Virus record (IMG/VR): IMGVR_UViG_3300025087_000051
Strand: one strand, 5' to 3'
Source: a virus
Taxonomy: Duplodnaviria > Heunggongvirae > Uroviricota > Caudoviricetes
DNA length: 64,000 nt
Below the pieces are notes generated by a model. That model was not told the origin of the DNA. It searched no databases and saw only the letters and a list, made by a program, of their open reading frames with translations. The position numbers and the translations under genes are program-made. Below are positions 9,641 through 48,824 of the stretch, in pieces (position 1 is the stretch's first letter; the number at the start of each line of letters is the position of its first letter).

Positions 9641-10670
9641 GAGTAGTACCACAAGCAAGACAAAAATGAATTCTATCTCTAAGTGTTTTCGGCACATGGT
9701 TGCCACAATGACTGCAATTTATGCTCGTGTGATGAGGCGCAACCTTCTCAAACTGAATACCAGCTTCTTCCGCTTTGTATTTCAGAAATCCGAGAAATTG
9801 TCCCCAACCAGCATCCGAAATGCTTTTGCTCAAGTGCCTATTTTTTACCATGCCTTTGATATTCAAATCTTCAACGGCAATAAAACCATAGATGTTTACA
9901 ATTTTGCGGGAAATCTTATGATGAAAATCAGACCTTTGATTTCTTATTTTGCAATGAAGTTTAGCAATCTTGATTCTTGCTTTTTTTCTGTTACGAGACC
10001 CTTTTTTCTTTTTAGAAAGCTGTCTTTGTTTAGAGACAAGTTTCTTTTCAGATTTACGAAGATATTTAGGGTTGTCTATAACTTTACCATCAGAAAGAAC
10101 AACAAAGGAGTGAATACCAACGTCAACACCAATAGCCTTATTGGGTATAGGCTTTGCGACAGGCTCGTATTCGACGGAAAAGCAGGCATACCATTTATCA
10201 ATCTCTCTTTTGATGGTGCAAGTCTTTATAATTCCAATAATGGGACGATGTATTTTTATTTTGACCGTTCCTATCTTGGAAAGCCTAAGACCTTGTTCTG
10301 TTATTTGAAATGCAGGTTCTTGTGGATAAGTAATGGAATCGTATCTGCCTTCATTTTTGAAACGTGGATAACCAACTTTTTCACCTGTTTTTATTCTGCG
10401 AAAGAAGCCCTGGAATGCTCTTTCAACTCTAAACAAAACATTTTGAAGAACTTGGGCATTAATATCATAGAGAAATCCCATCCTTTGTTTGTCGGATGTC
10501 AAAATCTTTTGTTGCTGTATTCTAGTAAGGCTTTTGCCCGATTGTTCATAGTTTCTTTTTCTATCAAACAGACAGGAATTGTAAAGGACTCGACATATTT
10601 CAAGAGTATGTTCAAGTACCTTCACTTGTTTTGTTGTAGGGTTTATTCTAAATTTGTAAGTTTTATGCAT
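9510..10670 (-). CDS. tnpB: TnpB (IS200/IS605 OrfB-family RNA-guided RuvC nuclease)
   Basis: RuvC-I GVDVGI, RuvC-II AVEDLNIKGM, zinc finger CSHCG...CLACG, RuvC-III RDHNASLNIL; N-terminal FRINPT...VLYN typical of TnpB. Confidence 0.9.
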   Translation of the reverse strand: MHKTYKFRINPTTKQVKVLEHTLEICRVLYNSCLFDRKRNYEQSGKSLTRIQQQKILTSDKQRMGFLYDINAQVLQNVLFRVERAFQGFFRRIKTGEKVGYPRFKNEGRYDSITYPQEPAFQITEQGLRLSKIGTVKIKIHRPIIGIIKTCTIKREIDKWYACFSVEYEPVAKPIPNKAIGVDVGIHSFVVLSDGKVIDNPKYLRKSEKKLVSKQRQLSKKKKGSRNRKKARIKIAKLHCKIRNQRSDFHHKISRKIVNIYGFIAVEDLNIKGMVKNRHLSKSISDAGWGQFLGFLKYKAEEAGIQFEKVAPHHTSINCSHCGNHVPKTLRDRIHFCLACGTTLDRDHNASLNILKKSTVGTTESYAWGGSLCQMLPENQEALSNL

Positions 10671-25254: not shown

Positions 25255-25614
25255 TTGTCTGGATATTGTAATAGTTTGTCTATTATCAAAGTAAAAAGAA
25301 TTACCAAGACACAGATAATTTTAGAAAATGGGATTAAGCTTAGAAACGATTCCATAAAAATGTATGGAGAGAATCAAGGTTATTGTTTAAAAGCAATAAG
25401 AAGAAGTGCTTGGAATAAGACAAATTATTATATCGAAAACGAAGATATTAAAGCTCGATACAAATACGAACAACTTTATTTAAAAACCAAAAGAAAGTTT
25501 GAATCACTAAAATTAAAAGAATTAACAGTCGAGCAATTGAACATATTATTGTCTGCAATGATTCAAACAACACCCACAGAAAACAAATCAATAGAAGAAC
25601 AAGAAACAAATTAA
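25255..25614 (+). CDS. hypothetical protein
   Basis: 119-aa ORF. Confidence 0.4.
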   Translation: MSGYCNSLSIIKVKRITKTQIILENGIKLRNDSIKMYGENQGYCLKAIRRSAWNKTNYYIENEDIKARYKYEQLYLKTKRKFESLKLKELTVEQLNILLSAMIQTTPTENKSIEEQETN

Positions 25615-25630
25615 TAAATAAGGAAAATCA

Positions 25631-25798
25631 ATGAAAATGAAATTGATACAAATAAGCATAAGAGTTGAACCCGACATATTAAAAGAAGTGGATCGGATCG
25701 TTAGAAGAGACAGACCAGAAATGATTGCGCTCGGATCGGAATGTACCAGGAATAGTATTGTTAGAAAAGCTCTGCGGAAATTTGTCGAGAAACAATAA
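25631..25798 (+). CDS. ribbon-helix-helix (CopG/Arc-like) DNA-binding protein
   Basis: 55-aa ORF (below track cutoff): IQISIRVEPDILKEVDRIV...SRNSIVRKALRKF = beta-strand + two helices pattern; AAGGAAAA RBS. Confidence 0.45.
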   Translation: MKMKLIQISIRVEPDILKEVDRIVRRDRPEMIALGSECTRNSIVRKALRKFVEKQ

Positions 25799-26039
25799 GG
25801 TAAGATAGATTCTATATATGTTGAAACTTATAGTTATGGATGTGGCTTTAAAATAATTTTATGGATTGGAAAATTTTCCAAGTCAGTAGAAAAAATAAAC
25901 AGTAAGAATTATATTAAATTGGGTTGTAGTGCTAATCCTTATAATAATGACTGTCTAACCGTGATAAACGAAGAACTATTTTACTCTGGTTCAATTTTTG
26001 CAGAACTAAAACAAATAAAATCACTACCAATTATTAATA

Positions 26040-27005
26040 ATGACAAATCTTATTCCGATTGATAATCAGCAAAATAATCAAATAAAGCTATACAAGGAAA
26101 CTTATTTTGATCTGGTTGATAGATTTCTCGCTGTCTCAGACATTGTTCCAAATTCTAAAAAATTCTACAAAAAAATATTGAGATATTGGTATGAATGGTG
26201 TGAGGAAAATAACGTTACTACTCCGACAAGGGAACACATATTGATTTATAAAAATTCACTAAATATTAAATCTCGATATACTCAGGCAGCTTACTTATCT
26301 GTTGTTGGAGAATTCTATAATTGGCTCGATATTGAAGGTATTTATAAAGATATTACAAAAGGAATCAAGGTTAAACATAGACAGGTCGATCAGCATACCA
26401 GAAGTAAATTAACTCTTGAAGAAATTCACGCACTGTTAAACAGTATCGACACCAGCACTTTTACAGGAAGTAGAGATTTTGCTATGATAAATCTTATGGT
26501 GCGAACTGGATTAAGAATGATTGAATTGAACAGAGCAGATGTGAACGACTTTTTCTTTTTAAATGATAGAAGGGTTTTGTACGTACAAGGCAAGGGACGT
26601 ATCCAGAAAGACGAGTTTGTGATTATTAATGAAGAAACGTACAAACCTTTGGAAAATTATATAAATACGAGACAATTTTTATCAGTTACCAATAACAATC
26701 AACCTCTTTTCGTTTCTCATAGTATTCGAGGTTCTGTAAACGATCCAAACAAGACGAATCGGAGGCTAACCGTAAACGCTATCAGATATATTGTGTGGAC
26801 AAGGCTAAAGCAAGCCGGTATTAAGCGAAAAGACATTGTGGGGCATTCGCTTAGACATACAACGGCAACACTCGCTATAGATGCTGGCGCTACCATAGAA
26901 GAGGTTCAAGCACTAATGAGACATAAAGACCCTCGAACTACCATGATTTATATTAAAGAAAGAAACAGGTTTAAAAATGCGGCAGAAGATAAGATAAAAA
27001 TTTAA
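26040..27005 (+). CDS. int: tyrosine recombinase / phage integrase
   Basis: C-terminal catalytic box GHSLRHTTAT...LMRHKDPRTTMIYIKE (R, HxxR, Y nucleophile). Confidence 0.9.
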   Translation: MTNLIPIDNQQNNQIKLYKETYFDLVDRFLAVSDIVPNSKKFYKKILRYWYEWCEENNVTTPTREHILIYKNSLNIKSRYTQAAYLSVVGEFYNWLDIEGIYKDITKGIKVKHRQVDQHTRSKLTLEEIHALLNSIDTSTFTGSRDFAMINLMVRTGLRMIELNRADVNDFFFLNDRRVLYVQGKGRIQKDEFVIINEETYKPLENYINTRQFLSVTNNNQPLFVSHSIRGSVNDPNKTNRRLTVNAIRYIVWTRLKQAGIKRKDIVGHSLRHTTATLAIDAGATIEEVQALMRHKDPRTTMIYIKERNRFKNAAEDKIKI

Positions 27006-27019
27006 ACGAAGGAAACGGC

Positions 27020-27051
27020 TTATCCACATTAAGCGTGATTAACGTGGATAA
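27020..27051 (+). promoter_or_regulatory. inverted pair of DnaA-box-like 9-mers
   Basis: TTATCCACA ...14 nt... CGTGGATAA directly after int stop. Confidence 0.35.
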
Positions 27052-27095
27052 TAAATAATAAAGAATATTGATAAATTGATCGATCCGATAGAGGA

Positions 27096-27118
27096 ATAGA
27101 TAGAATTTTAATTCAAAA
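27096..27118 (+). repeat. ATAGATAGAATTTTAATTCAAAA direct repeat copy 1 (iteron/arm-site-like)
   Basis: 23/24 identical to 27496-27519; related GATAGATAGTAAC at 28525 and inverted at 28654. Confidence 0.45.
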
Positions 27119-27134
27119 CGAGGCAATAAAAATT

Positions 27135-27425
27135 ATGAAAATCAAATTTATATTATTATTTATTATCTTTTTCCTTTTAGGCTGTGAGGTTGGTGTTCAT
27201 GTTTGTGCCACGAGACCAGGAATTTATGAACTAAAAAGTGAAACATTTCCCAATGCACAAACCTATCGTTTTGATTCAACAGCAAAAGATAATATATTAT
27301 TTTGTGGTACGAATGAAATTGCACTTGAATTTACAGATTTAACAACTGGGAAAAGAATTAAACTGGAAGAAAACAATATGCGATATAGAGGTAAATTAAT
27401 ACTTTTAAAGGAAACATGCAAATGA
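27135..27425 (+). CDS. small lipoprotein
   Basis: MKIKFILLFIIFFLLGC lipobox. Confidence 0.45.
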   Translation: MKIKFILLFIIFFLLGCEVGVHVCATRPGIYELKSETFPNAQTYRFDSTAKDNILFCGTNEIALEFTDLTTGKRIKLEENNMRYRGKLILLKETCK

Positions 27426-27495
27426 AAACAGACACCGAAGAATGCTTAATTGAAATACAAAACAAAGCCAACGAAATCTTAAAAATTAATATAAA

Positions 27496-27519
27496 CGATA
27501 GATAGAATTTTAATTTAAA
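27496..27519 (+). repeat. GATAGATAGAATTTTAATTTAAAA direct repeat copy 2
   Basis: see 27096; ~45 nt upstream of 27568 CDS. Confidence 0.45.
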
Positions 27520-27567
27520 AAATATCCAAAAAATAAAAGGAAGAATAGAAAGAAAGGAACAAAAATC

Positions 27568-28128
27568 ATGGAAAAAACAGTAACGATAGAATTAATTACT
27601 CCGATGCTGGGAACAATCCCAAAAAACAAAGAAATCTACGCCGATTTTATCGCAACGAAAAATCCCGCAGGTATAGATAATGAAGAAATACAGACTATTG
27701 AAGAAATTGAAGAAAAAGGCTGGACGGGATTTCATTCTGATGAACAAGGGCTGTTTGTTTATGATTATTTTATCAAAGGATTCCTTAAAAATGCTGGCAA
27801 TGTTTTGAAGGAAGAGCTTAAAATTAAAGCGTTAAGAAGCAAGATAAGTGATTTTCTTTTCGTAAAGCCTAGAAAAATCTACATTGGACAGAAAGTGGAC
27901 GGGGTTCTCGAAAGACCATTAAGAGGACAGACGGCACAAGGACAGCGAGTAACTCTCATACGGAGTGATTTTGTAAAAGAAGGAACAATGATTACCTTCC
28001 AGCTGAAATTATTGCCTCACAAAGAACTTACCTGGGAAGTGATAGATTCTTTGTGGATGTATGGAGAAGATCAAGGACTTGGACAATTTAGAAACGGTGG
28101 TTATGGTAGATTTAAAATTATTGCGTAA
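27568..28128 (+). CDS. hypothetical protein with RAMP/Cas6-like C-terminal glycine-rich loop (tentative)
   Basis: C-terminus GLGQFRNGGYGRFKIIA fits GhGxxxxxGhG + hydrophobic tail 3 aa before stop; 186 aa; no other Cas signature verified. Confidence 0.3.
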   Translation: MEKTVTIELITPMLGTIPKNKEIYADFIATKNPAGIDNEEIQTIEEIEEKGWTGFHSDEQGLFVYDYFIKGFLKNAGNVLKEELKIKALRSKISDFLFVKPRKIYIGQKVDGVLERPLRGQTAQGQRVTLIRSDFVKEGTMITFQLKLLPHKELTWEVIDSLWMYGEDQGLGQFRNGGYGRFKIIA

Positions 28129-28129
28129 T

Positions 28130-28490
28130 GGTACGGTGCTGTGGTGTTTGGTTTAGGTTTAGTACGATGAGGTAAAGTGCGGCAAAAGTAATGTGTCGTT
28201 TAGCGGGACGAAGTAATGGTCAGGCAAGGACAGGTCTTGTTTGGTAGTGTAATGGTTTGGTGTTGTGGCGTATGATTTAATGTAGCAAGGTAATAATAGT
28301 GTGTGGTTCGTCCTGGCAGGGTGATGGTTGGGTATAGTGCAGTGAAGTCCAGTAATGGTGTGGTAAAGCGATGTGGGGCTAGGGTTAGGTGCGGTAAAAT
28401 TCTATATGGTTTCAGTGTGGTGGTGTTATGTACGGTAGAATGGTGTGGTCGCGCAAGGTAATGGTAAGGTACGGTGCATTAGAAGAAGAA
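28130..28490 (+). repeat. C-depleted G/T-rich degenerate repeat tract, non-coding
   Basis: ~7% C on + strand vs genome; recurring RGTAATGGT, GGTAAAGYG, ACGGTGC motifs at irregular 19-88 nt spacing; stops in all frames. Confidence 0.6.
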
Positions 28491-28524
28491 AAAAGAAAAT
28501 TATTAACAGAACTAATACAAAACG

Positions 28525-28666
28525 GATAGATAGTAACTTGTCATCCAAAACGCAAGAACGTATCATAAGGTAAGCATTGCGTGATGCAGGGAGATACTAA
28601 AAAGAATTAGCCGGAAATAAACTAGAATAAAACCGGCTACGACTCTTTCAATAGTTACTATCTATC
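28525..28666 (+). repeat. inverted pair GATAGATAGTAAC / GTTACTATCTATC flanking ~115 bp upstream of 28685 CDS
   Basis: 13-nt perfect inverted repeat; contains GCCGG-18nt-CCGGC hairpin between. Confidence 0.4.
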
Positions 28667-28684
28667 TTTTTCATAAGAAAGAAG

Positions 28685-29161
28685 GTGGTTGTGATAGAAA
28701 AAATTTACAGATGTGATTTGTGCAACATACAACAAGAAAAACAAGGATGGAGAGATTGTCTCGATTATTTATTATCAAAAGTAAGTTTAATTGAAAATAA
28801 CATATTAAACAAGAACGAAACGATAGACAGGAAAGAAGTATCGACAAACACAGACGACATTCTGATTAACAAAATAAAAGAACTTTCAAAGAAATTGGTA
28901 GAAGATAATATTGCCTTTCCGATGGAAATGGATTATTTTTTAATCGAACAAGCAATGCTTCGGGGCGCATCCATAGCTTTTCAATTGCTAATGGAAAAAG
29001 AAACAGAATCAATAACAAGTGAAATAACAACAAAAAATGGACTTTTATACCGAAACGGTAAAATGATAGAATTACCGTACGCAGACGATGTGGCAAGAAA
29101 ACATGGATATATGTATGCGGAGCAACTGGTTCGTGCGCTCGAAAGTAAAAATAAAGAATAA
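28685..29161 (+). CDS. hypothetical protein
   Basis: 158-aa ORF, GAAGGTGG RBS, unusual start region. Confidence 0.45.
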   Translation: MVVIEKIYRCDLCNIQQEKQGWRDCLDYLLSKVSLIENNILNKNETIDRKEVSTNTDDILINKIKELSKKLVEDNIAFPMEMDYFLIEQAMLRGASIAFQLLMEKETESITSEITTKNGLLYRNGKMIELPYADDVARKHGYMYAEQLVRALESKNKE

Positions 29162-29179
29162 AAAAGGAGAACTTAGTAT

Positions 29180-29425
29180 ATGAATCTAGAATGTCGTGGA
29201 GATTATTTTTCGACTGATGGTATTAATTATTATCGTTGCCTTTGGGACGGAACTGCTTTGATATTAAAAGAAGTTGAAAAATTAAAAACTTGTTCAAATT
29301 GTAAAAGAACAATATCTAGCAATGCAGAAAATCATGGAATATTAAAAGCAGAGAAAATCAAATTCGTTTATATTTCTTATTTAACTGGCAATAAACTGGA
29401 AATAAGACTTCCAGGTAAGGAATAA
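29180..29425 (+). CDS. Cys-containing small protein
   Basis: 81-aa ORF. Confidence 0.4.
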   Translation: MNLECRGDYFSTDGINYYRCLWDGTALILKEVEKLKTCSNCKRTISSNAENHGILKAEKIKFVYISYLTGNKLEIRLPGKE

Positions 29426-30252: not shown

Positions 30253-30696
30253 ATGAAACCATATCTAATACAAAGAGCAAAATTCCAGGATAATCCTAAT
30301 CGTAAAGGCATTGATTCAATCTTAGATTTTGATTACATGGGAAGCGCAGAATTTGAATTCGGAGCATTACCACAAAGCCTAAAAAGAATCAGAGAAAATA
30401 TATCTAACTATTGCATATCTTCATTTGATATAAATAACAAAAAAATCAGTATTTTTTATGATAACAAACTGATAGAAAGTCCCAAAGAATTATCAGAAAT
30501 TATAGAAGGTCTTGCAGATAATAAATTTTGTCTAAAAGAATATTGCGATTTTCAACACTTCATATATTTTAACCCACTCATGCTTAAATGTGATTTTTGG
30601 TGGGACATAGAAAATGATTATATGTTCTGGAAATACAATGAAGAATTTAATAATAAATTTATAAAATTAATAAAACCAGGAGGGAAAAATGGATGA
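30253..30696 (+). CDS. hypothetical protein
   Basis: 149-aa ORF, AAAGGAG RBS. Confidence 0.45.
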   Translation: MKPYLIQRAKFQDNPNRKGIDSILDFDYMGSAEFEFGALPQSLKRIRENISNYCISSFDINNKKISIFYDNKLIESPKELSEIIEGLADNKFCLKEYCDFQHFIYFNPLMLKCDFWWDIENDYMFWKYNEEFNNKFIKLIKPGGKNG

Positions 30697-31210
30697 TATT
30701 TTAAAAGCACTAAAGGATGGATTAGATCAATTACTAGAAGGCGATCAAGACAGTAAAGACAATACAGAATTAAAGCTACCCGATCCTGTAAAAATGAGTC
30801 TGAATCACGCTATCGCCTTAACAGATAAGTATGAATCACTGGACAAAAGATTGGATATATTAAAATTTTGGTTTGATTCAGAAAAAACCAGAATCGAAAA
30901 ACAGAAGGAATTTATCGAAAAATGTTGCGAAGGATTTATGTTAAATTACATGGAGCGGTGTGGATCGAAATCATTGATATTGCCGAATGGACATAAATTT
31001 GGATTAAGAAAATGTCCAGATTCAGTAGAAATCAAAGATGAAGAAAAAGCAATAGACTGGTGTAAAGAAAATCTAAAAGAGGCGTGTAAGGAAAAAATTA
31101 GCTTATTAAAAAAACCGATAATTGATTATGTAAAATCTACGGGTAGCTTACCGGCAGGTATTGAATTTATTAGTTCGGAATCGAAGGGGCTTTCTTTTTC
31201 GATAAGTTAA
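30689..31210 (+). CDS. coiled-coil protein (Gam-like end-binding protein is a weak possibility)
   Basis: 173 aa, N-terminal coiled coil; no verified motif. Confidence 0.4.
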   Translation: MDDILKALKDGLDQLLEGDQDSKDNTELKLPDPVKMSLNHAIALTDKYESLDKRLDILKFWFDSEKTRIEKQKEFIEKCCEGFMLNYMERCGSKSLILPNGHKFGLRKCPDSVEIKDEEKAIDWCKENLKEACKEKISLLKKPIIDYVKSTGSLPAGIEFISSESKGLSFSIS

Positions 31211-35045: not shown

Positions 35046-35171
35046 ATGAAACGTATCAATTGCCATTTAACAAATCTTCAAATCAAACAATTAAAAAAAC
35101 TATCAAAAGAAGTTGGGCTGTCGGTTGCTGAAATTATTCGCCGAGCAATAGATGAATATATAACAAAATGA
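35046..35171 (+). CDS. ribbon-helix-helix micro-protein translationally coupled to tnpB
   Basis: 41-aa MKRINCHLTNLQIKQLKKLSKEVGLSVAEIIRRAIDEYITK; stop TGA overlaps tnpB ATG (ATGA). Confidence 0.45.
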   Translation: MKRINCHLTNLQIKQLKKLSKEVGLSVAEIIRRAIDEYITK

Positions 35172-36292
35172 AAAAGACATTTCTTTATCGTGCGAAAATA
35201 AACAGACAGACAGAATCTAATTGCTGTCGATGGATTGAAATTTGTCGTGATGTTTATAACTCCGCATTAGGGCAAAGAATTAATACGTACAAGGAAGCCG
35301 GAAAATCTATAACCAAAAACAATCAAGTAACACAATTACCTTTAATTAAAAAAGATTTTCCAAGTATTAAGATAGTTAGCTCTCAAACACTTCAAGATGT
35401 GATTGAACGTCTCGATAAAGCCTATAAAGCATTTTTTCGTAGAGTAAAGTTTGGAGAAAAAGCCGGATTTCCCCGTTTTAAGAATCGAAACAGCTATAAT
35501 TCCTTCACCCTTAAACAGCATGGATATAAACTTGATGGTAGGTATTTATATATTAAAAACATTGGCAGGTTCAAACTCTTTCTTTCCAGACCGATTGAAG
35601 GAAACGTCAAAACCGTTACCATCAGAAAGATGCCTACAGGTAAATGGTATGTATCTTTTTCTTGTGATGATGTTTCTGCCAAGCAAGTCTCAATAACCGA
35701 TAAAATCATAGGAATAGACGTAGGAATTAAAAATTTCTGTGTTGACAGCGAAGGAACATGCGTTAAAAACCCTAAATTTTTATTTGATTCTGAAAAAGAA
35801 CTTAGACGTAAACAGAGAAAACTTTCCAGAAGAAAAAAGTGTTCTAGCCACTGGAACAAAGCAAAAATATTAGTTGCTAAAGTGCATGAAAAAATAACAA
35901 ATCAAAGAAAAGACTTTTTACATAAGATTACCAATAAATATATTAATAATTTTCAAACTATTTATATTGAAGATTTAAAGATTAAAAATATGGTTAAAAA
36001 TAGATATTTGAGCAAATCTATTTCAGACAGTAGTTGGGGTACTTTCTTTCGGTTTCTTTCTTATAAAGCTGAAAATGCTGGTAGGAAAGTAATTAAGGTG
36101 AACCCTGCCAATACTTCACAAAAATGTTCTACTTGCGGAGAAAAAGTCCAAAAATCTTTATCTGTTCGTATACATTCGTGTTCTTTTTGTGGCTTGAAAA
36201 TAGATAGAGATTTGAATGCTGCAATAAATATAAGTCAGGATGGGCAGTCCTGTCAGGCATTAACTAATGATATGTTAGAATTGGTAGCCTGA
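35168..36292 (+). CDS. tnpB: TnpB (second, divergent copy; ~40% identity to 9510-10670)
   Basis: IGIDVGI, YIEDLKIKNM, CSTCG...CSFCG, RDLNAAINI. Confidence 0.9.
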   Translation: MKKTFLYRAKINRQTESNCCRWIEICRDVYNSALGQRINTYKEAGKSITKNNQVTQLPLIKKDFPSIKIVSSQTLQDVIERLDKAYKAFFRRVKFGEKAGFPRFKNRNSYNSFTLKQHGYKLDGRYLYIKNIGRFKLFLSRPIEGNVKTVTIRKMPTGKWYVSFSCDDVSAKQVSITDKIIGIDVGIKNFCVDSEGTCVKNPKFLFDSEKELRRKQRKLSRRKKCSSHWNKAKILVAKVHEKITNQRKDFLHKITNKYINNFQTIYIEDLKIKNMVKNRYLSKSISDSSWGTFFRFLSYKAENAGRKVIKVNPANTSQKCSTCGEKVQKSLSVRIHSCSFCGLKIDRDLNAAINISQDGQSCQALTNDMLELVA

Positions 36293-37772: not shown

Positions 37773-38663
37773 ATGATTTGGATGTCTATGGTATGTTTTG
37801 TTGCATTTGTTATTTTTTTTATCATTTTAAAGAATTTGAATAAAGATACGAATGATAGCGATAAATTAATTTTAAAAATATTCGCAGGAGCGTTTGGCGG
37901 TATTGGTGGACTTTTGTTCTTTTTTAGTATTTTTTCAATAATTCCGGTTGGCAACGTTGGAATACAAGTTATATTCGGAAAGGCTTCCCAGAACATACTC
38001 GAAAATGGATTAAGAACTAAAAATCCGTTTACTAGTGTTCAAAAAATGAGCGTGAAGACTCAGGAACTGAAAGAAAGCGCACAAGTTCCATCAAAAGAAG
38101 GACTGATCATGGATGTGGATATTAGCCTATTGTATCGATTAAACCCCCAAACATCTTTCGAGGTATATACAAAAGTTGGAAAAGATTATCAATCAGTTAT
38201 TGTAGAACCTCAACTCCGTTCGGCAATTCGTGAGATTACATCATCCTACGAGGCGAAAGTATTATATTCATCGGAAAGAGACAAAATAAGCAATGAAATA
38301 TATTCCTTATTCAAGAAAATGACTGAACACAGAGGAATTATCACAGAGCAATTACTGCTAAGAGACATTGGGCTGCCGAAAGTTGTTTCTGATGCAATTG
38401 AACAAAAACTTGAAGCGGAACAAAGATCAGAACAAATGAAGTTTACCTTAATGAAAGAGACACAAGAAGCAGAAAGAAAAAGAATCGAAGCAAGGGGTGT
38501 ATCTGATTTCCAACACATAGTTAGTGAAGGAATTAATGACAATCTTTTGAAGTGGAAAGGAATCGAAGCCACGGAAGCATTAGCAAAGTCTCCAAATGCT
38601 AAAATCGTTGTAATAGGTGGTAGAGACGGTATGCCGCTTATTCTTAATGCAGAAACTAAATAG
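37773..38663 (+). CDS. SPFH/band-7 (stomatin/prohibitin/HflK-like) membrane protein
   Basis: N-terminal TM then band-7 core and coiled-coil EQKLEAEQRSEQMKF..QEAERKRIEARG; GGAGGGG RBS. Confidence 0.75.
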   Translation: MIWMSMVCFVAFVIFFIILKNLNKDTNDSDKLILKIFAGAFGGIGGLLFFFSIFSIIPVGNVGIQVIFGKASQNILENGLRTKNPFTSVQKMSVKTQELKESAQVPSKEGLIMDVDISLLYRLNPQTSFEVYTKVGKDYQSVIVEPQLRSAIREITSSYEAKVLYSSERDKISNEIYSLFKKMTEHRGIITEQLLLRDIGLPKVVSDAIEQKLEAEQRSEQMKFTLMKETQEAERKRIEARGVSDFQHIVSEGINDNLLKWKGIEATEALAKSPNAKIVVIGGRDGMPLILNAETK

Positions 38664-47082: not shown

Positions 47083-47289
47083 ATGACAACAGACAATATA
47101 AATCATCCGCCACATTACAAATCAAACGGTATGGAAGCTATTGACGTGATAGAGGCGTTTGGTCTTGGATTTCATCTTGGTAATGCCATGAAATACATTC
47201 TTAGAGCTGGCAGAAAAACAGAAGACGATACGGAAGATACAAAAAAGGCTATTTGGTATTTAAATCGTTATTTAGGAGAAAAACAGTGA
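47083..47289 (+). CDS. DUF3310-like phage protein
   Basis: NHPPHYKSNGMEAIDVIEA pattern recalled from phage DUF3310 family (from memory). Confidence 0.45.
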   Translation: MTTDNINHPPHYKSNGMEAIDVIEAFGLGFHLGNAMKYILRAGRKTEDDTEDTKKAIWYLNRYLGEKQ

Positions 47290-48824
47290 AAATAATTAAA
47301 CCGTCAATTGAAATTTTAGACGTATTAGACCAAACCACTATTTTGAAAAGATTGGAATTAGTTGGAAGGACTTGCTATAAATCAGAAGATAAAATAACCG
47401 ATAATTCTTGTGTTGAGTTTATCAGAAAGATTATTAAGTCTGGACACCATTCCATAATTGAACATTACGATATTTCGGTTAGAGTAATATGTGATAGGGG
47501 CGTTACCCACGAAATAGTTAGACATAGAATAGCCAGCTATGCTCAGGAATCTACACGATATTGTATATCGGGAGACATGGGTTTATCTTTTAAAAATCCT
47601 CATCAAAAATTTACTGTGAGCCAACTTTATAACAATCGAATTAACTCAAAAAATAATTCGTGGAAAAGAATGTTTATTAAACAACTTAACGAAGACACCG
47701 GATATATCACTTTTGACAAAATAAAAAATATTGTTTATACAGGATTTAAAGAGGTAGTAAAAATTACTACTTCTCTTGGGTATTCTCTTATTGTTACGCC
47801 AGATCATAGAATAAAAACCAGTTATGGATATGCAAGGGCAGACAGTTTAGCGGGAAGGGAGATAGCTGTAAATGGAATTGGAATTTGTACAACAAAACAT
47901 GCCTACCAAGATAAAGATTGGCTTAAATATCACTATATTGTGTTAAACAAAACAGCAGTACAAATTGCCAATGATTTAAAAGCTAGTACCTCTGCCGTTA
48001 AGAAATGGATAAGATTGCATGGCTTTGCGAATACTAAACCAAAAAGCTATTGGAATAAGGGAAGAAAACCCTGGAATAAAGGACTTACCGAAAGCAATGA
48101 TATAAGAATCAAAAAACAAGGAGATGCCCTACGAAAATTCGGATATAGAAAAGGAGAAAAAAAAAGACAGAAAACAATATCTATAAGAACTTATCATAAA
48201 ACCGTAAAAGATAAATGTGTTTTGTGTGGAGGTTGTTTATCCCTTCATGTTCACCACAAAAACAGCAACAGGATGGATAATTGTACTGACAATTTGATAA
48301 CCTTATGCCCCTCTTGTCATGGGGGTGTCCATAATAAAAATCTATCATTTGTATATTTTGATAAAGTAGTATCCATAGAAAAATTGCCTAATACTATTCC
48401 TGTTTATGATATTGAGATGGGAGGGCAATATCATAATTTTGTAGCAAACGGTGTGGTTGTGCATAACTGTAATTATGCAAGCGGTAAATTTGGAAATGAA
48501 ATCACTGTTATTGAACCTTGTTTTTGGAATATAGATAACGATGAAAAGATGTTAGTATGGGAATTAGTCATAAAAGCCTCAGAAGCCGCATATCTCAAAC
48601 TTATAGAACTTGGAGCAACTCCACAAGAAGCGAGGAGTGTGCTTCCAAATTCTTTGAAAACAGAAATAATTGTTAAATTCAATCTTCGAGAATGGAGACA
48701 TTTCTTAACTTTGAGAACTTCTAGGGCTGCTCATCCACAAATGAGAGAAGTGACAAACATGATACTAACAGAGTTTAAATCAAAATTACCAATTATTTTT
48801 GAGGATATATCCAATGAAAATTAA
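47253..48824 (+). CDS. thyX: flavin-dependent thymidylate synthase ThyX interrupted by an HNH intein
   Basis: N-extein IVRHRIASYAQESTRY (RHRx7S...SxRY ThyX motif); C-extein ARSVLPNS...NLREWRHFLTLRTS; exteins total ~221 aa. Confidence 0.8.
   Translation: MVFKSLFRRKTVKIIKPSIEILDVLDQTTILKRLELVGRTCYKSEDKITDNSCVEFIRKIIKSGHHSIIEHYDISVRVICDRGVTHEIVRHRIASYAQESTRYCISGDMGLSFKNPHQKFTVSQLYNNRINSKNNSWKRMFIKQLNEDTGYITFDKIKNIVYTGFKEVVKITTSLGYSLIVTPDHRIKTSYGYARADSLAGREIAVNGIGICTTKHAYQDKDWLKYHYIVLNKTAVQIANDLKASTSAVKKWIRLHGFANTKPKSYWNKGRKPWNKGLTESNDIRIKKQGDALRKFGYRKGEKKRQKTISIRTYHKTVKDKCVLCGGCLSLHVHHKNSNRMDNCTDNLITLCPSCHGGVHNKNLSFVYFDKVVSIEKLPNTIPVYDIEMGGQYHNFVANGVVVHNCNYASGKFGNEITVIEPCFWNIDNDEKMLVWELVIKASEAAYLKLIELGATPQEARSVLPNSLKTEIIVKFNLREWRHFLTLRTSRAAHPQMREVTNMILTEFKSKLPIIFEDISNEN
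47562..48467 (+). other. intein (302 aa) with HNH homing-endonuclease domain inside thyX
   Basis: starts CISGDMG (block A), HVHHKNSNRMDNCTDNLITLCPSCHGGVHN HNH, ends VYDIEMGGQYHNFVANGVVVHN followed by +1 Cys. Confidence 0.8.

Follow-up and report, generated by a model that had tools for sequence, protein, structure and literature searches.

The question raised by positions 27020-28666 of a 64,000-nt stretch of Caudoviricetes phage DNA (IMG/VR record IMGVR_UViG_3300025087_000051; this whole stretch is hereafter the window) is whether the short repeats lying there behind an integrase gene form a combined attachment, replication and operator complex, as an initial annotation of the DNA had proposed, or belong to a different kind of element. 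We assign 27568-28482 to a Viral Interference Programmable Repeat (VIPR) module, and the interval is chiefly a member of this recently described kind. The interval as a whole is very probably a mosaic accessory region, in which the VIPR module is combined with a Xer-like integrase gene and its palindrome, an integrase relic with a duplicated end and an inverted repeat. The source phage is about 78.5 kb in size, and the window is the identical part of contigs from aquifer metagenomes of many samples; no GenBank phage gave a blastn match for 25600-29200.

VIPR is a form of RNA-guided DNA recognition that was proposed in 2026 to be older than CRISPR (bioRxiv 10.64898/2026.04.26.720920). Its protein component, Vipr, is an ancestral RAMP of ~20 kDa that binds guide RNAs (vrRNAs) of tandem YNNGG repeats, that combine a conserved GGY with a hypervariable NN. 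It is through the NN bases that double-stranded DNA is read, with a skip of one base, and that rival phages are repressed (bioRxiv 10.64898/2026.04.26.720920). Seven VIPR types have been described, with the relaxed consensus forms NNNGG, YNNNG and NNNNG and with array architectures that include staggered, ribozyme-interspersed and single ones, and stand-alone vipr genes are also noted (bioRxiv 10.64898/2026.04.26.720920). The type II architecture consists of vrRNAs of 9-16 repeats with a conserved structured 3' tail, and its validated case is Escherichia phage SUSP1 (KT454805.2; vipr at 28474-29061 and vap1 at 28031-28471) (bioRxiv 10.64898/2026.04.26.720920).

A predicted vrRNA array at the 3' end of a phage gene

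The tract at 28119-28482 on the + strand, which begins inside the last codons of the open reading frame (ORF) at 27568-28128, is G+T-rich and C-poor with a GC skew of +0.63; the initial annotation had passed over both the tract and its 5-nt periodicity. It is composed of 71 tandem D-G-Y-N-N units, 59 of 5 nt, 11 of 6 nt and one of 3 nt (364 nt in all), and is predicted to be a vrRNA array. The GY autocorrelation within it is 0.39 at lag 5, and a 150-nt span of it contains 14-20 GY pairs at a distance of 5 nt, where the window averages 1.09 (standard deviation 1.57); with both strands scanned, this is the sole occurrence of the period-5 signal in the window. Position 2 of the 71 units is G in 83% and position 3 is T or C in 97%, and the corresponding figures for 36 arrays with 2942 units are 93% G and 94% Y, the following two bases being variable. 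The locus therefore holds adjoining pentanucleotide repeats on the strand of the gene, in a relaxed consensus that the preprint lists.

Tandem Repeats Finder did not detect the array, because only two of every five bases repeat. Arrays were detected instead by the count of G-Y pairs 5 nt apart, a simple annotation-free detector of such loci. A strict same-phase test proved too strict for the Vipr clade of the window because of its 6-nt units, and a dynamic-programming parser was too permissive as a detector. The 6-nt units are regularly placed: across 36 vipr loci they recur every 4-6 units, with a mode of 5 (184 observed versus 47 expected from a geometric distribution), and the array autocorrelation peaks at 26 and 31 nt, which gives a super-period of 26-31 nt. 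Six of the eleven 6-nt units in the window read xGTAAT and are followed by GGT. This extra base about every fifth unit in the stand-alone clade is a previously unremarked feature, and any structural or decoding model of the clade must account for it. The layout may represent the architecture that the preprint calls staggered.

A CsrA or Hfq sponge RNA, a TRAP-like ring-binding site, Chi clusters, telomere-like repeats and coding in another frame were also considered for the tract, and all five were rejected on account of the phasing, the density of stop codons and the obligate association with a RAMP gene. Rfam at gathering thresholds gave nothing relevant in the whole window, and at E<=1 it returned for 26900-28800 only a sub-threshold DnaX hit, with no ribozyme or other family.

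The vipr gene product is a small RAMP protein

The ORF at 27568-28128 (+), here named vipr, encodes a 186-aa RAMP with a single RRM and a G-rich loop (GLGQFRNGGYGRF, residues 170-182) at its C-terminus, a fact that had escaped the initial annotation. The product has no Pfam, PHROG or NCBIfam match. Its family is very large and unannotated, with 676 word-indexed hits and 2234 clusters at 50% identity, and no model of these three collections covers the 2234-cluster clade. A family profile built from 41 members gave weak PDB matches to type VII Cas7 (E 0.022) and to the G-loop of Csm4, and PADLOC reported a Csm3 match for Vipr at E 0.0017. Comparison by hhalign of this profile with that of the SUSP1 Vipr family gave a full-length alignment of 181 co-linear columns (probability 92%, E 6.8e-7), and the alignment with the single SUSP1 Vipr sequence was limited to the C-terminal G-loop (probability 65%). 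The protein thus shows homology to an experimentally validated Vipr and has the build of a small stand-alone RAMP, with a single RRM, a G-rich loop and a thumb, and no CRISPR-Cas locus lies around it.

The weak matches raise the question of how Vipr relates to the type III and type VII CRISPR-Cas backbone subunits Csm3, Cmr4 and type VII Cas7. Unlike these, Vipr has a single RRM and its similarity to them is marginal (E 0.02); the window locus is without CRISPR repeats or other cas genes, and its array has a period of 5 nt in contrast to the 6-nt period of Cas7-bound crRNA (bioRxiv 10.64898/2026.04.26.720920; also general knowledge). Another possibility is that the protein and its RNA constitute an anti-CRISPR decoy mimicking the type III backbone filament, or some other ribonucleoprotein that does not target DNA, for the protein is nearest in structure to type III Cas7 proteins and is encoded in an accessory slot of a phage, and no targets were found (see below). 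Against a decoy stand the full-length profile homology to the SUSP1 Vipr family, a repeat grammar identical to that of vrRNAs which the preprint showed to guide DNA binding, and the hypervariable NN bases, which fit information-carrying guides better than a decoy; we consider it very unlikely.

Conservation of the gene and its array

Homologues of vipr were gathered from IMG/VR, ENA/Logan assemblies and GTDB genomes (individual loci are given L numbers below). A period-5 G-Y array adjoins the vipr homologue, on its strand, in 39 of 41 non-redundant loci, usually flush with the vipr stop codon and sometimes upstream too, and no such array exists elsewhere in the ~330 kb of these loci. The phase is kept in phages of 60-70% GC, where GCNNN takes the place of GTNNN. 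Arrays diverge strongly in length and sequence even where the Vipr proteins are 93-95% identical, and in an 83-nt block common to L004 and L008 the substitutions never hit the G and never turn the Y into a purine. Across 39 vipr loci, the ±3 kb around the gene hold no conserved neighbour, and the genomic context varies between phages, which indicates that the unit of inheritance is the gene plus its array. Hairpins followed by T runs are visible past the array in L001, L003 and L031, and L049 has an intrinsic terminator downstream of it.

These loci also bear on the proposal that the G+T-rich tract is no guide-RNA array but acts as DNA, either as a packaging signal or as a hotspot of recombination of the Chi-like or RecA-loading kind. 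The strong G+T richness and strand asymmetry of the tract are consistent with such a role, as are its position directly upstream of the small terminase gene in L001 and the presence of a Gam-like end-protection gene 2.5 kb downstream in the window. However, strict 5-nt G-Y phasing with free NN is unexpected for Chi or pac sites, and the tract is always at the 3' end, on the same strand, of a gene for a Cas7-like RNA-binding protein, regardless of the neighbours. High-GC phages retain the phase while switching to GC, and the identical pattern in SUSP1 is RNA, as shown experimentally. A DNA-level function of the tract is therefore extremely unlikely, and we treat it further as a predicted vrRNA array.

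Comparison with SUSP1 and assignment to VIPR

The SUSP1 locus shows the same grammar (ATGGTAAGGTGTGGTTCGGTAAGGTGCGG...), and the phase test recovers exactly its four published vrRNAs. Both loci have a small (~20 kDa) phage-encoded single-RRM RAMP with a G-rich loop, and in both the gene is flanked by pentanucleotide repeats on its own strand, with G-Y conserved and NN variable. They differ in four respects. The consensus of the window is D-G-Y-N-N (YNNNG-like), whereas that of SUSP1 is a strict YNNGG; the window has one continuous 71-unit array, whereas the vrRNAs of SUSP1 are discrete, ~100 nt long and individually provided with a leader and a conserved tail; the clade of the window carries the extra base with its super-period, whereas SUSP1 is strictly phased; and the window is without a vap gene and without a conserved tail or leader. 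The layout of SUSP1, with vrRNAs both upstream and downstream, is resembled by those relatives that have upstream arrays. Period-5 arrays flank vipr on both sides in L002 (5675-5925 and 6735-6990) and are present in the upstream regions of L013, L029 and L045; in L021 and L047 the array is upstream of vipr only.

Several observations count against placing the locus among the VIPR systems. Motif position 1 is G in just 39-51%, so that the repeat is YNNNG-like and not the canonical YNNGG, and ~18% of the units are 6 nt long, which the published rule does not cover. There is no conserved 3' tail among the arrays of the relatives, and no vap gene was found. The vrRNA array of the locus, its boundaries and its processing are predicted from the sequence. 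The array is continuous and is not divided into the 9-16-repeat vrRNAs with structured 3' tails of type II; since the preprint describes other architectures, the missing type II tail does not exclude VIPR membership, and stand-alone vipr genes without an accessory vap gene are in line with those that the preprint notes.

No target could be added to this picture, which is a further point on the negative side. Searches of the window and loci L001-L052 under skips of 0-3 nt, self-targets included, yielded no target above chance. In IMG/VR, three exact 10-unit patterns gave 0 hits in a search of exact patterns only, and two 8-unit seeds gave 66 hits, none of which extends (the best matches 13 of 24 flanking positions). 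The target searches of the preprint were made with tolerant nhmmer (bioRxiv 10.64898/2026.04.26.720920).

We propose that the array would be co-transcribed with vipr as a 3' extension of its mRNA, as suggested by the gapless junction of gene and array, by the terminators past the array in relatives and by analogy to SUSP1, and that the transcript would then be cut into vrRNAs as in that phage. Vipr subunits would coat each vrRNA, one per 5 nt, gripping the G-Y and exposing the NN; following the model of the preprint, these bases would recognise double-stranded DNA of rival phages, skipping one base, and bring about its repression. More tentatively, and with the odds against it, the stand-alone clade might use a vrRNA architecture or decoding beyond the published type II, namely a tail-, leader- and vap-free mRNA 3' extension built of 4-6-unit modules, each closed by a 6-nt unit (often xGTAAT before GGT). 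If true, the 26-31-nt super-period could correspond to sites of processing, or to points where the Vipr filament changes register versus the DNA target. The locus offers a clean environmental example of VIPR, from an aquifer phage, within a very large clade of stand-alone vipr genes.

The integrase and its candidate core site

The gene int (26040-27005, +) precedes the interval and encodes a Xer-like tyrosine recombinase of 321 aa (Pfam PF00589 at 3e-24), which also matches XerA/XerD-type NCBIfam models at 1e-31 to 3e-37, yet under their curated cut-offs. Xer-like recombinases act on sites of simple build, with a short spacer between two inverted arms; dif (XerC/D), loxP (Cre) and FRT (Flp) all consist of two inverted 11-13-bp arms around a 6-8-bp spacer. 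A palindrome of this build, TTATCCACATTAA-GCGTGA-TTAACGTGGATAA, lies at 27020-27051, 15 nt past the int stop codon, with 13-bp arms that match at 12 of 13 positions and a 6-bp spacer. It is the sole palindrome with 13-bp arms, at most one mismatch and a spacer of 4-10 in the 64 kb, against a mean of 0.53 in Markov simulations. The two words that had been annotated as DnaA boxes, TTATCCACA at 27020-27028 and its inverted partner CGTGGATAA at 27043-27051, are present, and both are parts of this 13-6-13 palindrome. The likeness to dif, loxP and FRT is one of inverted arms, short spacer and an adjoining Xer-like recombinase gene, and no sequence likeness is claimed.

L060 has an int that is 66% identical and retains the spacer and right arm unchanged over 21 nt, within a conserved block ~390 nt from int, past two small ORFs. 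This conservation near a related int makes a recombination (attP-like) site plausible, and the palindrome is most likely the core recombination site of the recombinase, a candidate attP core or lox-like resolution site, which fits it better than DnaA boxes or a terminator. The attP proposal of the initial annotation is thus kept in altered form, its inverted boxes becoming a lox/dif-like site after int, although no attL or attR was found to go with it; its arm-type integrase sites are given up, as the integrase is of the Xer-like kind that acts on simple two-arm sites.

Some findings speak against a core site. The left arm of L060 departs from that of the window at 5 of its 13 positions, no attB, attL or attR was identified for the palindrome, and the only match to it outside the phage is at chance expectation, about one by a rough estimate. 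IMG/VR has no copy of the palindrome's 20-mer core, and JGI metagenomes contain it nowhere but in the phage and in an rmlB-like gene on a 600-kb contig. There, the 20 nt of spacer and right arm, AGCGTGATTAACGTGGATAA, are codons 26-33 (DSVINVDK) of the gene for an rmlB-like dTDP-glucose dehydratase on a large bacterial contig (L062, 7721-7740; Ga0308164_10000019, 599,898 bp), with a further match in L063, and L060 shares 22 nt with the rmlB-like site. No attB is claimed here: about one chance match is expected, integration at this site would remove the first ~30 codons of the gene, and the phage side offers no start codon or ribosome-binding site to restore the gene after integration. A tRNA scan, as a clue to the attP target, found none.

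Alternatively, the palindrome could be a terminator or a stabilising hairpin of the int mRNA. Its position 15 nt past the stop codon and its folding energy as RNA (-11.3 kcal/mol, z -2.6) are compatible with a hairpin, but the hairpin is a weak one, it has no U tract, its stem is AT-rich and it was not flagged by the terminator scan. The drift of one arm in L060, while the spacer and the other arm are invariant, is also unlike the evolution of a hairpin, and we judge this explanation to be unlikely.

An integrase relic and its duplicated end

Behind the candidate core site, the sequence at 27052-27112 (+) aligns gap-free with the final ~60 nt of the integrase genes in the close relatives L004 and L008 and reads IDKLIDPIEE*IEF* in comparison to IDRLTDPVEEQIEF* (asterisks, stop codons), a premature stop now being present; it is assigned as a relic, the remaining 3' end of an integrase gene of the L004/L008 type. 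The int product of the window is just 33% identical to those of L004 and L008, yet shares their first 14 residues, which together with the relic argues that the body of int was exchanged while its former 3' end stayed in place. The first 14 codons, which are identical (MTNLIPIDNQQNNQ) between window 26040-26085 and L004 1465-1510, would mark the left junction of this putative allele swap and the relic its right junction. The 13-mer GATAGAATTTTAA occurs only in the relic, at 27498 and at the int stop of L008 and L009.

The second of these places belongs to a direct repeat, ATAGATAGAATTTTAATT[C/T]AAAA, found at 27096-27118 and 27498-27520; shuffling gave two copies in 0 of 100 cases. The two long copies of the initial annotation are thus real, with corrections in detail: they are identical at 22 of 23 positions, copy 1 begins AATAG and not GATAG, and copy 2 begins at 27497/27498 and not 27496. 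Copy 1 (+) is the last 23 nt of the relic and holds a -10-like TAGAAT; copy 2 (+) lies 47 nt upstream of vipr and overlaps a promoter-like TTAAAA-18-TAGAAT (27479-27508). Four of the five window occurrences of ATAGATAG are inside 27096-28665.

An ORF of 96 aa with a signal peptide and a lipobox (FLLGC) lies between the copies, at 27135-27425 (+), as a moron-like cassette that is absent from L004; its slot is occupied in L008 by an unrelated 84-aa ORF. The ribosome-binding site and ATG past the relic align with those of the L004 vipr, and in the window they begin the lipoprotein ORF. From these alignments, the 23-bp direct repeats are interpreted as the tail of the relic duplicated around the inserted lipoprotein gene, a predicted cassette-exchange scar. 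The copies may also act as promoters, as judged from the consensus, because they contain TAGAAT. Repeats next to an integrase that look iteron-like can accordingly be scars of cassette exchange and not functional sites, which is a lesson for annotation.

An inverted repeat in front of the next gene

The repeat GATAGATAGTAACT at 28525-28538 and its inverted copy at 28653-28666, upstream of the ORF at 28685, are exact, as annotated earlier, and the arms reach 19 nt at 89% complementarity. The whole inverted repeat, AAACGGATAGATAGTAACT / AGTTACTATCTATCTTTTT (28520-28671, +), encloses 114 nt and forms the probable leader or control region of the 158-aa ORF at 28685-29161 (+), which has no family hit and is not a conserved VIPR accessory gene. 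A sigma70-like promoter, TTGTCA-17-TATCAT (28538-28566), and a hairpin (28609-28638) lie within it, and as RNA it can close a 145-nt structure of -44.9 kcal/mol (z -3.95). At the corresponding place L004 and L008 have a compact palindrome, CCTATCCGATATAA-N4-6-TTATATCGGATAGG, with CGGATAG in common, and the inverted repeat shares this GATAGATAG/CGGATAG motif. The inverted repeat is most likely an operator or leader structure, as predicted from these features, and of the repressor operators suggested initially this is the part that stands, given that it abuts a promoter-like site and that the relatives' palindrome shares CGGATAG; both the promoter and the operator role are predicted from consensus matches.

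Elements taken for a replication origin

The remaining proposal is a replication origin or control complex, in which DnaA boxes and GATAGATAG iterons would be joined by an unwinding element rich in AT. The region does contain one exact DnaA-box 9-mer with an inverted partner that matches at 8/9, the short repeats are statistically real, and an A-rich stretch at 28483-28520 (+) follows the array, which confirms the AT-rich stretch noted before. However, DnaA-box-like 9-mers with at most one mismatch are at chance in the window (29 versus 24.6 expected), and a similar pair is found inside an ORF at 10321/10363. The long repeats are just two, 402 bp apart, and are explained as the integrase relic and its duplication around an inserted gene. 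The supposed unwinding element directly follows a transcribed-looking array, is best described as an A-rich spacer past it, and shows nothing that points to unwinding. No initiator or Rep gene is adjacent, and neither iterons phased beside an initiator gene nor an enrichment of DnaA boxes was found. We therefore abandon the origin reading, which has hardly any chance of being correct. The pair inside the ORF region (TTATCCACA and TTATCCACG; 10321-10329 and 10363-10371, - strand) is in direct orientation, 42 nt apart, and is consistent with chance because 29 such words exist in the window.

Other genes of the phage

Farther downstream, the early region codes for two more proteins, a Mu Gam-like end-protection protein (30689-31210, +; PHROG 2205, 1e-06) and an SPFH/Band 7 protein (37773-38663, +; Pfam 5e-31). 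A ThyX (Thy1) thymidylate synthase with an inserted intein-splicing domain is encoded at 47253-48824 (+; Pfam 8e-44 and 1e-15). The window also contains, at 35168-36292 (+), a gene for a 374-aa TnpB with OrfB_IS605, Cas12f1-like TNB and HTH_OrfB domains (E 4e-28), a second gene of the RNA-guided-nuclease type within the same phage genome as vipr.

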